A stretch of 64,000 nucleotides of DNA from Eledone cirrhosa (taxonomy: Eukaryota). Below, in pieces: positions 21,265-46,674 of the stretch; positions within the stretch are counted from its first letter, which is position 1, and every line of letters begins with the position of its first letter. The notes below the pieces were generated by a model. That model did no database searches, was not told the origin of the DNA, and saw only the letters and a program-made list of their open reading frames with translations. Position numbers and translations under genes: made by a program. The stretch is taken from positions 149,482,001 to 149,546,000 of the forward strand of contig OZ024742.1 of assembly GCA_964016885.1 (NCBI GenBank). The letters run 5' to 3'.

Positions 21265-21520
21265 TGTAATAAACAACATAAGGCAATTATTCCATTTACC
21301 AGTGGTTTCTTAAAAGCAAAAAATTTTGCTTTCATTCATCAGAATGAAAAAATTCTGGATTTTTTCATTCTGATGATTGAAAGCAAAAATTTTTGCTTTT
21401 AAGAAACCAGTGGTAAATGGAATAATTACCTTATGTTGTTTATTACATAACTATTAAGCTCTGTTACCTACATAGAGCACTCTTTTTTCCTGGACTTTTC
21501 CGATGGAATTACTTCACATA
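21259..21520 (+). mobile_element. Fold-back element (palindrome 21259-21454 plus tail), hammerhead in both arms
   Basis: Inverted arms; TA flanks; relative at 46795-46975. Confidence 0.85.
21365..21420 (+). ncRNA. Type-I hammerhead ribozyme (mirror copy 21292-21347, minus strand)
   Basis: tcatt CTGATGA ttgaaagcaa..ttgcttttaa GAAA ccagtgg TA aatgg. Confidence 0.85.
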
Positions 21521-30960: not shown

Positions 30961-30975
30961 GTTATATATATATAT

Positions 30976-31372
30976 AATATATTAACAAATGGAAACTATA
31001 TTTATAAAACCATATTTATTTTATTATACATATTTCAAGGGCCACCAAGGCAAATTATGGTGCGCTTTCATCAGATTAGTTTTATAAATAAATATTGACA
31101 TACCCTGAAAAAAGACAACCTTAACGGTTGGAGCTTCCTCAATATTTATTTATACAACTAATCTGTATTGTATTTTATCTGATGAAAGCGCACCATAATT
31201 TGCCTTGGTGGCCCTTGAAATATGTATAATAAAATAAATATGGTTTTATAAATATAGTTTCCGTTTGTTAATATATTGTATATTTACTCCACTAACAGTT
31301 GAGTGCTTTATATCAGTTATAAAAACATTTTTTAAGCTTGTTGAATCCCAACAAATTAAATATAACCTCTGC
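30976..31372 (+). mobile_element. Fold-back element of family C (palindrome 30976-31277 plus tail)
   Basis: Inverted arms; TA flanks; left arm has a small deletion next to the ribozyme core. Confidence 0.85.
31173..31234 (+). ncRNA. Type-I hammerhead ribozyme
   Basis: ttttat CTGATGA aagcgcacc..ggtggccctt GAAA tatgta TA ataaaa. Confidence 0.85.
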
Positions 31373-31816: not shown

Positions 31817-31817
31817 C

Positions 31818-32000
31818 GTTATTCCGGGTTGAATCGGAGGTAACCACAGTAAGTAAGGTACTCAATACATAGCAGAGTATAACAGTTTTAATATAGATGA
31901 GATTCTACAGGACTAGAACTGTTTCATTCATTAGAAAACATCAGGAATGATTCCTGATGATTTCTAATGAATGAAACAGTTCTAGTCCTGTAGAATCTCA

Positions 32001-32006
<6 letters not shown>
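31818..32006. mobile_element. Fold-back element with hammerhead core (palindrome 31891-32006)
   Basis: CTGATGA 31954-31960, tttc..gaat, GAAA 31973-31976, cagtt. Confidence 0.75.
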
Positions 32007-32030
<24 letters not shown>

Positions 32031-32036
<6 letters not shown>

Positions 32037-34746
32037 AATATAGACATAGAATATTCGAAAATATTCTGTATGTTTATAATAAACATTTTGAAGACCTAAT
32101 CGCTATAGAATAGAATACGTCACGTATTACAATTAGATTCTCGATAAAAGCAAGGGAAGTAATCTACGCGTTTCATTCTTGTTAGAAATCATCAGGACTA
32201 CATATCCAGTGCTTTTATCGAGAATGACACAGCTAGAGACTTATAGAATACTTAGCTGTGTACAGGAACTGGTTTGAAAGAGCGGTTGCCGGTCCGGCAG
32301 AAATTAGAAATTGGAATAAATGCTCTGAAATAGCGATATATATGTGAATATAGACATAGAATATTCGAAAATATTCTGTATGTTTATAATAAACATTTTG
32401 AAGACCTAATCGCTATAGAATAGAATACGTCACGTATTACAATTAGATTCTCGATAAAAGCAAGGGAAGTAATCTACGCGTTTCATTCTTGTTAGAAATC
32501 ATCAGGACTACATATCCAGTGCTTTTATCGAGAATGACACAGCTAGAGACTTATAGAATACTTAGCTGTGTACAGGAACTGGTTTGAAAGAGCGGTTGCC
32601 GGTCCGGCAGAAATTAGAAATTGGAATAAATGCTCTGAAATAGCGATATATATGTGAATATAGACATAGAATATTCGAAAATATTCTGTATGTTTATAAT
32701 AAACATTTTGAAGACCTAATCGCTATAGAATAGAATACGTCACGTATTACAATTAGATTCTCGATAAAAGCAAGGGAAGTAATCTACGCGTTTCATTCTT
32801 GTTAGAAATCATCAGGACTACATATCCAGTGCTTTTATCGAGAATGACACAGCTAGAGACTTATAGAATACTTAGCTGTGTACAGGAACTGGTTTGAAAG
32901 AGCGGTTGCCGGTCCGGCAGAAATTAGAAATTGGAATAAATGCTCTGAAATAGCGATATATATGTGAATATAGACATAGAATATTCGAAAATATTCTGTA
33001 TGTTTATAATAAACATTTTGAAGACCTAATCGCTATAGAATAGAATACGTCACGTATTACAATTAGATTCTCGATAAAAGCAAGGGAAGTAATCTACGCG
33101 TTTCATTCTTGTTAGAAATCATCAGGACTACATATCCAGTGCTTTTATCGAGAATGACACAGCTAGAGACTTATAGAATACTTAGCTGTGTACAGGAACT
33201 GGTTTGAAAGAGCGGTTGCCGGTCCGGCAGAAATTAGAAATTGGAATAAATGCTCTGAAATAGCGATATATATGTGAATATAGACATAGAATATTCGAAA
33301 ATATTCTGTATGTTTATAATAAACATTTTGAAGACCTAATCGCTATAGAATAGAATACGTCACGTATTACAATTAGATTCTCGATAAAAGCAAGGGAAGT
33401 AATCTACGCGTTTCATTCTTGTTAGAAATCATCAGGACTACATATCCAGTGCTTTTATCGAGAATGACACAGCTAGAGACTTATAGAATACTTAGCTGTG
33501 TACAGGAACTGGTTTGAAAGAGCGGTTGCCGGTCCGGCAGAAATTAGAAATTGGAATAAATGCTCTGAAATAGCGATATATATGTGAATATAGACATAGA
33601 ATATTCGAAAATATTCTGTATGTTTATAATAAACATTTTGAAGACCTAATCGCTATAGAATAGAATACGTCACGTATTACAATTAGATTCTCGATAAAAG
33701 CAAGGGAAGTAATCTACGCGTTTCATTCTTGTTAGAAATCATCAGGACTACATATCCAGTGCTTTTATCGAGAATGACACAGCTAGAGACTTATAGAATA
33801 CTTAGCTGTGTACAGGAACTGGTTTGAAAGAGCGGTTGCCGGTCCGGCAGAAATTAGAAATTGGAATCAGCTAAGTATTCTATAAGTCTCTAGCTGTGTC
33901 ATTCTCGATAAAAGCACTGGATATGTAGTCCTGATGATTTCTAACAAGAATGAAACGCGTAGATTACTTCCCTTGCTTTTATCGAGAATCTAATTGTAAT
34001 ACGTGACGTATTCTATTCTATAGCGATTAGGTCTTCAAAATGTTTATTATAAACATACAGAATATTTTCGAATATTCTATGTCTATATTCACATATATAT
34101 CGCTATTTCAGAGCATTTATTCCAATTTCTAATTTCTGCCGGACCGGCAACCGCTCTTTCAAACCAGTTCCTGTACACAGCTAAGTATTCTATAAGTCTC
34201 TAGCTGTGTCATTCTCGATAAAAGCACTGGATATGTAGTCCTGATGATTTCTAACAAGAATGAAACGCGTAGATTACTTCCCTTGCTTTTATCGAGAATC
34301 TAATTGTAATACGTGACGTATTCTATTCTATAGCGATTAGGTCTTCAAAATGTTTATTATAAACATACAGAATATTTTCGAATATTCTATGTCTATATTC
34401 ACATATATATCGCTATTTCAGAGCATTTATTCCAATTTCTAATTTCTGCCGGACCGGCAACCGCTCTTTCAAACCAGTTCCTGTACACAGCTAAGTATTC
34501 TATAAGTCTCTAGCTGTGTCATTCTCGATAAAAGCACTGGATATGTAGTCCTGATGATTTCTAACAAGAATGAAACGCGTAGATTACTTCCCTTGCTTTT
34601 ATCGAGAATCTAATTGTAATACGTGACGTATTCTATTCTATAGCGATTAGGTCTTCAAAATGTTTATTATAAACATACAGAATATTTTCGAATATTCTAT
34701 GTCTATATTCACATATATATCGCTATTTCAGAGCATTTATTCCAAT
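32031..34746. repeat. 310-nt tandem array (~5.9 units, then ~2.8 inverted units), each unit with a hammerhead: non-LTR retrozyme-like
   Basis: tagacataga at 32041, 32351, 32661, 32971, 33281 and 33591; inversion junction 33867/33868; TA flanks. Confidence 0.92.
33925..33967 (+). ncRNA. Type-I hammerhead of the array unit (also + 34235 and 34545; - 32159, 32469, 32779, 33089, 33399 and 33709)
   Basis: gtagtc CTGATGA tttct aaca agaat GAAA cgcg TA gattac; stem I extended by attctcgataaaagca/tgcttttatcgagaat. Confidence 0.9.
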
Positions 34747-34810
34747 ATATATATATATATATATGAAAAACAAGGGGAAGAAGAATACTGCATGGTTGCA
34801 CATGGATTAC

Positions 34811-35439: not shown

Positions 35440-35698
35440 TTTTGTGCAGTGCCTTTGCTCACTATAAAAGCTTCACGGCACAGGCATTGCTTTATATCTG
35501 GAGATCTCTCTGCACTTGTCGTCACATGGTATCATTGGCCCAGCACTATGTGTCAATAATTGTCACAAGTGTAGTGTTTGTACCAGAGTTTTCAAGTCGC
35601 TGGCTGGACTAAAAAGTCACACTCGTTCAGCGCATCGGTAGGGGTTCTCCTACATGGATATAAAGTAGTGGCCGTACTCGAAAACGAGTTGGCAGCCA

Positions 35699-35702
<4 letters not shown>
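35440..35702 (+). mobile_element. LINE 3' end encoding a C2H2-type zinc finger
   Basis: Same sequence as 45932-46148 (CSVCTRVFKSLAGLKSHTRSAHR). Confidence 0.7.
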
Positions 35703-35729
<27 letters not shown>

Positions 35730-35734
<5 letters not shown>

Positions 35735-36850
35735 CAGGAAAGAAGGTTTACATGGTTTGCTATACAAAAAAGTTTTTAATCACATAGCTTACATTTGTTT
35801 CACTGAACTGGTCTGTCTAGAGATCGCTATCCGCCTAATTTTGCGTCACTCGATCGCCAATACAGAATTATAACCAGTCAGATCTTCGGAGCATGCGAGA
35901 ATGAAGAAAATACACAGGCAAGAAAAGAAAAGAAAATATGGAGTAGTTATGGCATTCAATTAGAACAATAACAACAACAATTATTACAACAATGCTATCA
36001 ATAAACTATTTAAGGAGACCCTGACATTACTTAGGTGGGGGGTATATAATGTATCTAATGTTACGGCGTGAAAACCAGCTGTCATAAGGCAAAAAGTATC
36101 GTAGTGTGTATCAATTTTAAATTATAAAGATAAGCTAGTTTTTACAGTCTTTCTCTTCATCTTCAACAGTATATATATTAATTCGTTAACCTCTGTATTA
36201 ACTCTACAACTATTGAGCTTTGACAGTGGTCCCACTCATGTATACTGTTGAAGATGAAGAGAAAGACTGTAAAAACTAGCTTATCTTTATAATTTAAAAT
36301 TGATACACACTACGATACTTTTTGCCTCGACAACTGGTTTTCACGCCGTAACGTTAGATACATTATATACCCCCCACCTAAGTAATGTCTGGGTCTCCTT
36401 AAATAGTTTATTGATAGCATTGTTGTAATAATTGTTGTTGTTATTGTTCTAATTGAATGCCATAACTACTCCATATTTTCTTTTCTTTTCTTGCCTGTGT
36501 ATTTTCTTCATTCTCGCATGCTCCGAAGATCTGACTGGTTATAATTCTGTATTGGCGATCGAGTGACGCAAAATTAGGCGGATAGCGATCTCTAGACAGA
36601 CCAGTTCAGTGAAACAAATGTAAGCTATGTGATTAAAAACTTTTTTGTATAGCAAACCATGTAAACCTTCTTTCCTGATTTATTATTACTCCAAATGTTT
36701 ACAACATAAAAATTACAGCATACCCGCAGCATCACTATGAAAACGCCTTGTTGAGTCAAACCAAGCCAAGCGTTAATATCATCCACTACCTGGAATACCA
36801 TAACTGGACTTCACCTAAGTGGACTGCATTTAACTATTATTTGTTAATCC

Positions 36851-37332: not shown

Positions 37333-37372
37333 TTTCTTCTGATGAAAGACTAGCGTCCGAAACGTTAATCCC
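37333..37372 (+). ncRNA. Minimal Penelope-type hammerhead within the decayed palindrome 36945-37450
   Basis: CTGATGA aagac tagc gtcc GAAA cg TT; poor stem I; fragment of the same family at 44170-44262 (minus). Confidence 0.55.
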
Positions 37373-37615: not shown

Positions 37616-38305
<690 letters not shown>

Positions 38306-45931: not shown

Positions 45932-46643
45932 ATTGCTTTATATCTGGAGATCTCTCTGCACTTGTCGTCACATGGTACCATGGACCCAGCACTATGTGTC
46001 AATAATTGTCGCAAGTGTAGTGTTTGTACCAGAGTTTTCAAATCGCTGGCTGGACTAAAAAGTCACACTCGTTCAGCGCATCGGTAGGGGTTCTCCTACA
46101 TGGATATAAAGTAGTGGCCGTACTCGAAAACGAGTTGGCAGCCACCATGTATGTATGTATGTGTCAGTAATTGTCACAAGTGTAGTGTTTGTACCAGAGT
46201 TTTCAAGTCGCTGGCTGGACTAAAATGTCACACTCGTTCAGCGCACCGGTAGGGGTTCTCCTACATGGATATAAAGTAGTGGCTGTACTCGAAAACGAGT
46301 TGGCAGCCACCATGTATGTATGTATGTGTCAGTAATTGTCACAAGTGTAGTGTTTGTACCAGAGTTTTCAAGTCGCTGGCTGGACTAAAATGTCACACTC
46401 GTTCAGCGCATCGGTAGGGGTTCTCCTACATGGATATAAAGTAGTGGCTGTACTCGAAAACGAGTTGGCAGCCACCATGTATGTATGTATGTGTCAGTAA
46501 TTGTCACAAGTGTAGTGTTTGTACCAGAGTTTTCAAGTCGCTGGCTGGACTAAAAAGTCACACTCGTTCAGCGCATCAGTAGGGGTTCTCCTACATGGAT
46601 ATAAAGTAGTGGCCGTACTCGAAAACGAGTTGGCAGCCACCAT
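45932..46643 (+). repeat. LINE 3' end amplified into four tandem 165-nt units
   Basis: gtgtca(a/g)taattgtc at 45996, 46161, 46326 and 46491; (ATGT)n tails. Confidence 0.9.
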
Positions 46644-46674
46644 ATATATATGTGTGTGTGTGTATGTGTGTATA

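Follow-up and report, generated by a model that had tools for sequence, protein, structure and literature searches.

Metazoan non-LTR retrozymes are described as non-coding tandem arrays of approximately 300-nt units with low GC content that are present in thousands of copies, and Cervera and de la Pena (2020; PMC7229834) proposed that reverse transcriptase (RT) copies a circular RNA into tandem cDNA, with Penelope-like elements (PLEs) as candidate helpers. More recently, Li, Clavereau and Pollet (2026; bioRxiv 10.64898/2026.07.22.740005) interpreted animal retrozymes as non-autonomous PLE derivatives on the basis of co-occurrence and pLTR homology; the accessible part of that preprint describes no insertion ends, tails or inversions. 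PLE insertions themselves are recognized by a 5'-truncated inverted copy, a bias for (TA)n and, at one end, a tail of 30-40 bp (PMC8557442). In vitro, RT starts at two internal sites, the tail represents the sequence that separates them, and both strands of the target are extended (PMC11167929). In the same in vitro system, an anole PLE used uncleaved RNA as its dominant substrate and did not need hammerhead cleavage (PMC11167929). Non-autonomous multicopy head-to-tail elements, Chlamys/MRC1, were also noted by Craig et al. 2021 (PMC8557442). Both the birth of retrozyme arrays and the origin of tandem or inverted PLE insertions and their tail are described as open in the available text of these sources (PMC8557442, PMC7229834, bioRxiv 10.64898/2026.07.22.740005). 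The element class is known, rolling-circle copying and a PLE helper have already been proposed for it, and the present contribution is genomic evidence for such copying.

The window analyzed here, a 64,000-nt stretch of the Eledone cirrhosa genome, contains an array of 310-nt units in two arms of opposite orientation. The left arm (32026..33867, minus strand) comprises 5.94 identical units and the right arm (33868..34746, plus strand) 2.84 identical units, both with exact 310-nt periodicity, in agreement with the approximately 5.9 and 2.8 units of the earlier note. A single circular 310-mer contains both arms as perfect substrings (100% identity). The arms meet head-to-head (5' to 5') at 33867/33868, as the earlier note had proposed, in a blunt joint without microhomology, overlap or insert. 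Unit positions are counted here from the predicted cut, GUA|GAUUAC; on this scale the 5' truncation falls at position 158 in the left arm and at position 217 in the right arm, and the 3' ends of the two arms enter (TA)n tracts at 32003..32033 and 34745..34764, respectively. The entry of both 3' ends into (TA)n had been noted before, and we add that each of them has its own fixed stopping point, which is unit position 165 on the right (site A) and unit positions 131-139, within an internal TA run, on the left (site B). Consequently, the 26 nt between the two putative start sites (34721..34746, plus strand), referred to here as the tail, are present at the right terminus and missing from the left. 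The earlier extent of 32031..34746 holds for the array as a whole, except that we placed the left boundary at 32026, a position that is ambiguous because the unit itself finishes in 9 nt of TA repeat. With both ends in (TA)n, a target-site duplication is unreadable at this array.

This locus resembles the metazoan retrozymes (PMC7229834) in its non-coding tandem units, in its low GC content (106 of 310 nt per unit, 34%) and in the thousands of copies of its unit in the genome. LTRs are absent, no open reading frame of at least 110 aa overlaps the array, and the unit length falls within the 150-450 bp range of retrozyme units, each of which carries a type I hammerhead, as does the 310-nt unit by prediction. 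Whereas RNA circles and cleavage were demonstrated for the retrozymes of PMC7229834, for the 310-nt family both are predictions from genomic sequence. Conversely, the two-armed layout, the fixed A and B ends and a test of variants within arrays do not appear in the main text of that paper.

Sequence-pattern matching across the 3.0-Gb genome recovered 4,587 exact and 13,167 degenerate matches to a 30-mer of the ribozyme core (control, 0), dispersed across many loci and corresponding to about 4 Mb. Since two-armed insertions hold a mean of 9.9 units, the 13,167 units translate into roughly 1,300 insertions; exact A-type ends numbered 1,015 genome-wide. We classify the family, as judged from its sequence characters, as a young, non-coding, non-LTR hammerhead retrozyme. 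Because these roughly 1,300 insertions are nearly undiverged, they permit a direct genomic test of three features of an insertion, namely one A and one B start, a single template haplotype shared by the two arms, and seamless laps. We analyzed 142 insertions, consisting of the window locus, locus L111 and 140 insertions from a single contig.

Several other repeats were observed in the window and beyond. The 310-nt array sits in the right TA run of a different hammerhead-bearing mini-element (31817-32002), which is also arranged minus-then-plus with unequal ends in TA, has a stem II region like that of the 310-nt unit and recurs at L147, L151 and L156. Other near-perfect inverted repeats with TA flanks and a similar head-to-head appearance lie at 30967-31286, 35729-36683 and 37754-38126, and a 165-bp tandem repeat (four copies, 97%) occupies 45993-46659, with a single TA-ending unit near 35549-35700. 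Elsewhere in the genome, an older sibling retrozyme family (L113:2441-2865 and L222-L251; 1,416 candidates) has units of about 313 nt that are 78% like the 310-nt unit over positions 59-154, with its best copies 97-98% alike. This sibling family keeps the hammerhead and both end classes of the 310-nt family; its arms are shorter, its distal helix covaries, and many of its loci display the two-armed layout.

The predicted hammerhead and the fold of the unit

The earlier note's GUA-type hammerhead in each unit was recovered, in that the core pattern CUGAUGA...GAAA with GUA|GAUUAC occurs once per unit; the array accounts for 9 of the 13 matches to this pattern in the window, where shuffled sequence would be expected to give 0.17. 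Additional core matches lie at 21305-21407 (a minus/plus pair) and 37339-37363. In the first plus-strand copy the predicted type I hammerhead spans 33925..33967, with stem I formed by 33925-33930 and 33962-33967, the core beginning at 33931 and a stem III palindrome, ACGCGT (ACGCGU in the RNA), at 33955-33960, as the earlier note had described it. Cleavage is predicted after 33961, 34271 and 34581 on the plus arm and on the minus arm at 33715/33714 and then every 310 nt down to 32165/32164. Beyond an internal loop, the 6-bp stem I continues into a 16-bp distal helix (33901-33916 with 33974-33989, plus strand; unit positions 250-265 with 13-28), and this helix, also part of the earlier description, is borne out by the computed fold (z = -5.35; pair probabilities 0.81-1.0). 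Such a helix is predicted to hold both ends of a cleaved monomer together.

The remainder of the predicted ribozyme is less robust. Stem II is weak, with a pair probability of just 0.13-0.16 for the catalytic form, the minimum-energy fold mispairs the core, and an Rfam search with the unit returned no family at the gathering score, the best match being a sub-threshold HH9 (19.2 bits, E 0.49). The ACGCGU stem III self-pairs between two copies at a computed -9.5 kcal/mol. Minimal hammerheads of axolotl retrozymes were reported as able to act as dimers (PMC7229834), and 8 of 9 Xenopus retrozyme dimers tested showed no cleavage according to the preprint (bioRxiv 10.64898/2026.07.22.740005).

Nevertheless, variants that spread through the family spare the predicted ribozyme. 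Of 155 one-off substitutions, 30 disrupt the core or a ribozyme stem, whereas 0 of 38 propagated ones do so (p = 0.001), and pairing is kept in all eight of the propagated substitutions that fall in stems. In addition, the sibling family forms its distal helix from a different sequence (z = -4.91). Since propagated variants spare the ribozyme and the sibling helix is maintained despite its changed letters, the copies that spread appear to have passed through folded RNA, and the selection seen among propagated variants suggests that cleavage matters.

Insertion ends, junctions and a putative Penelope-like partner

Across the sampled insertions, site A maps mostly to unit position 165 and site B mostly to 130 or 139, such that B lies 26-35 nt upstream of A. 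Among 100 consecutive A-ended insertions, 92 carried an inverted B-ended arm and none a second A end; of the other eight, five were single-armed (one of them entering an N gap) and three had far ends outside the extracted stretch. The same A-plus-B pairing was found in 31 of 33 insertions picked regardless of their far end. Overall, 121 A-plus-B pairs were counted, of which 120 are verified, the B end of L096 being at the edge of the extracted sequence, and two arms of at least 60 nt were present in 124 of the 142 insertions, a sample partly selected for two ends. At L088 and L102 the A arm, at 11-19 nt, does not attain the length of the tail, which would be the outcome for an A-primed cDNA that stopped before site B. 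At L111 (927-1780) a B-ended arm is joined to a unique unrelated stretch in place of an A arm; the first 15 nt of this stretch resemble unit positions 140-154, and a switch to another RNA is a possible origin.

At least (TA)3 was present within 30 nt of all 149 3' ends scored in the first 81 insertions, a result that holds partly by construction since the sample was found with TA-ending patterns; among the loci found with internal patterns (L070, L217 and L219-L221), TA ends were less clean at L217, L219 and L220. The 5' ends of the arms, by comparison with these fixed 3' ends, are near-random: 10 of 230 fall no more than 10 nt from the cut site, where 14.8 would be expected, and the first half of the unit is slightly over-represented (p = 0.045). 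Of 115 junctions between arms, 17 have 0-nt overlap, 60 an overlap of 1-5 nt, 2 an overlap of at least 6 nt and 36 a short insert. The copy-number distribution at other loci, which the earlier note had singled out for examination, is one of roughly exponential arm lengths with medians of 4.0 and 3.1 units, and the lengths of the two arms of an insertion correlate weakly (rho 0.22).

This footprint closely parallels that of PLE insertions as described in the available portions of PMC8557442 and PMC11167929, including the inverted 5'-truncated copy, the tail, the (TA)n target and a hammerhead upstream of two RT start sites. There are also differences. Unlike PLEs, the 310-nt family has no open reading frame, and the two arms of an insertion each repeat one and the same 310-mer over several laps. 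The TA run that contains site B is complementary to the primer, in contrast to the non-homologous start sites of the anole element (PMC11167929), and the rule that A and B are each used once per insertion is not stated for PLEs in the accessible parts of those two papers.

Intact frames encoding RT plus a GIY-YIG endonuclease exist elsewhere in the genome, in copies that are 96-98% identical and have (TA)n ends. Loci L142-L160 represent several young families of this kind (96-98% protein identity within a family) that end in (TA)n; the L145 family carries a hammerhead in its 3' region and L155 contains a complete head-to-head inversion. No unit-like pLTR was detected by blastn in 50 GIY-YIG loci (150 scored, of 10,595 candidates), and no unit-like sequence was found in the 3' ends of 19 RT plus GIY-YIG open reading frames inspected, nor through 30 sibling loci; the best match to the unit among GIY-YIG loci proved to be a sibling retrozyme inserted beside a PLE. 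Thus, compared with the accessible text of bioRxiv 10.64898/2026.07.22.740005, pLTR homology was not found here in the sampled loci, whereas the insertion footprint was. We rejected the possibility that the array is an autonomous PLE, since an RT plus GIY-YIG open reading frame is absent from it and such frames are located elsewhere in the genome. The array works like a PLE-dependent non-autonomous element and is not itself a PLE.

The template of the two arms

Sequence variants within the arrays bear on what was copied. The one-off variant set omitted L093 and L078 (haplotype switches), L085 (periodic expansion) and L219 (an older copy), the register tests omitted L087, L096, L177 and L216 (cut by the edge of the extracted sequence), and five variant calls at L090 and L096 were removed as alignment artefacts near positions 1-4. 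In 74 of the 77 insertions with at least two units in both arms, the two arms share the majority haplotype, compared with a mean of 9.2 and a maximum of 20 in permutations, even though 49 haplotypes are distributed among the 142 insertions. Furthermore, 21 variants are each private to a single sampled locus and, on the arms that span their position, have reached every unit or every unit except one (e.g., L062, 24 of 24 units; L041, 22 of 22); passage through a monomer bottleneck would lead approximately 15% of daughter insertions to fix a new variant, and 21 of 142 were seen. One-off variants number 0.15 per unit, and of 183 such variants 173 are confined to a single unit. Only two loci (L049 and L199) have one-off variants mirrored in register on both arms, where copying of a multimer would be expected to give 47, a figure that assumes parents as varied as the sampled loci and that would be lower if a few very clean master arrays were the source. 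Finally, no indel was found at unit positions 306-2 in 1,292 crossings of the cut site. One-base insertions at unit position 3, adjoining the cut site, are fixed at nine loci and could have begun as joining errors. Because haplotypes are shared, private variants fixed, mirrored variants few and crossings seamless, one closed monomer copied for many laps is favored, and the case for repeated copying of one monomer is strong. Loci L093, L078, L094 and L085 are genuine exceptions to this pattern.

We consider that the array is a single retrozyme insertion into (TA)n, likely made by a PLE RT/GIY-YIG endonuclease that primed on both cut strands and copied one 310-nt circle for several laps from two fixed sites, a reading to which we assign a probability of roughly 0.7. 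Reverse transcription around a monomer circle giving both arms in one insertion, as the earlier note had suggested from this locus, is also the best fit to the population of 142 insertions. The pathway we infer would begin with transcription of an array, followed by hammerhead cleavage at GUA|G, probably by two cores paired through the palindromic stem III, after which stem I and the 16-bp helix would hold together the two ends of the monomer for its closure into a circle. A Penelope-like enzyme would then nick both strands of a (TA)n target and start cDNA synthesis at approximately position 165 (A) and positions 130-139 (B), a step of which the two end classes and the strict A/B pairing are the observed part. 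Each cDNA would run for a roughly exponential number of laps and stop at a near-random position, and the two cDNA ends would presumably be joined by end-joining, the forms seen being an overlap of 0-5 nt or a short insert. Multimeric or mixed templates would account for a minority of insertions, and the longest arrays would grow later at the DNA level.

The alternative that survives best, which we nonetheless regard as unlikely, invokes the same enzyme and the same two start sites but takes as template multimeric RNA, either linear or a large circle, that was transcribed from a homogeneous parent array and left uncleaved. The anole PLE mainly used uncleaved RNA in vitro (PMC11167929), seamless joints and the lack of a pile-up at the cut site are equally expected from uncleaved RNA, and differences in register on both arms at L049, L199 and L093 point in this direction; at L093 the haplotype switches at the same lap on both arms, a pattern that a monomer circle does not give. 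Against it stand the 2 mirrored variants where 47 were expected, the apparent ribozyme selection, which suggests that cleavage matters, and the 49 haplotypes at 142 loci together with the 21 fixed private variants in arrays of up to 24 units; these haplotypes and private variants need repeated monomer bottlenecks and regrowth that truncating copies of a multimer cannot provide.

An improbable variation on the preferred scheme dispenses with the covalent circle, so that the template is a cleaved linear monomer held in a ring through stem I and RT jumps from its 5' end to its 3' end at each lap. This arrangement would equally yield single-haplotype multimers, the 6-bp and 16-bp helices would bring both ends together, and the position-3 insertions adjoin the joint. 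However, RT jumps usually leave extra or missing bases, and neither indels (0 in 1,292 crossings) nor an excess of cDNA stops was seen at the joint. Jumps between molecules would also mix haplotypes, yet mixing was found at 2 of 142 loci (L078 and L093). At L078, 276A>G is missing from laps one to four of one arm but present in the final two laps of that arm and in every lap of the other; two template molecules, fill-in of the junction using the opposite arm or editing in the course of copying could be responsible. At L094, the arms differ at position 51.

Later expansion of PLE-type insertions of about one unit by DNA slippage or unequal exchange, in the manner of a minisatellite, is very improbable as the source of the arrays; local expansion by unequal crossover was suggested in the preprint of Li, Clavereau and Pollet (bioRxiv 10.64898/2026.07.22.740005). 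Periodically repeated variants at L085 (45 units), together with a few shared variants at L041, L040 and L070, are of the kind such expansion produces, and the L085 pattern is the result of later growth at the DNA level, which is seen only in the longest arrays. In general, though, one-off variants are singletons (173 of 183), 171 of 230 arms have at least two units with about 0.05% divergence, and the same private variant is found on both of the arms that would have had to expand. Helitron-like or satellite DNA amplification was likewise ruled out by the RNA-pairing selection and the star-like variants, growth at the DNA level being limited to the longest arrays.

We give almost no weight to an assembly or amplification chimera (a fold-back artefact), of which perfect identity and a large palindrome are typical, since the fixed A/B pairing recurs at more than 100 loci with differing junctions and haplotypes, short-read contigs of run X2 contain at least 15 minus-to-plus joints at other unit positions (depth 3-27), and one loose end among these contigs exactly matches the unique L111 junction. 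The joints of run X2 and the L111 match indicate that the two-armed layout exists outside the assembly. The junction at 33867/33868 was bridged by none of the best 24 of 272 short-read pieces (runs X2, X4 and X5), which is uninformative either way. Runs X1, X3 and X6, which have other organism codes, each yielded one 340-nt contig equivalent to a closed 310-nt loop (depth 10-15), for which carry-over of a high-copy repeat is as likely an origin as anything else; these loops were left out of the evidence.

The A>G excess and implications for retrozymes and PLEs

Propagated substitutions are enriched in A>G (12 of 38, compared with 14 of 160 one-off substitutions; p = 0.0007). A>G accounts for all six transitions that create wobble pairs in stems, against an expected share of 0.34 (p = 0.002), and 276A>G, which lies in stem I in a UAG context, recurs on five haplotype backgrounds. 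ADAR enzymes prefer UAG, and the A>G pattern would fit ADAR editing of the template RNA; part of it can also come from selection for pairing and from rare template switches. The A>G test was conceived after the first 81 insertions, and the later 61 replicated it only partly: 276A>G and 20A>G recurred on further backgrounds, but the new propagated changes were two A>G and three T>C, so that the strand asymmetry was not repeated at new sites. Within propagated variants, A>G and T>C stand at 12:6, which is not significant against base composition (p = 0.095). Collectively, the A>G excess hints at RNA editing. Extending the preferred reading, we tentatively raise the possibility, which we consider rather doubtful as a whole, that each insertion records a single circular RNA molecule on which the two halves of a PLE RT dimer worked at the same time from two fixed sites (a double rolling circle), and that it fixes the A-to-I edits of that circle.

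By titles and abstract openings, we found no retrozyme paper that reports the one-template and A/B test, in a search of mainly openly accessible literature. The array belongs to a known kind of element for which the mechanistic evidence is unusually clear, and the 310-nt unit is a candidate substrate for in vitro PLE assays. If the reading of a dimer combined with editing were true, it would explain the tail and inversion of PLEs in vivo, and it would mean that RNA editing feeds heritable variation into a ribozyme parasite.
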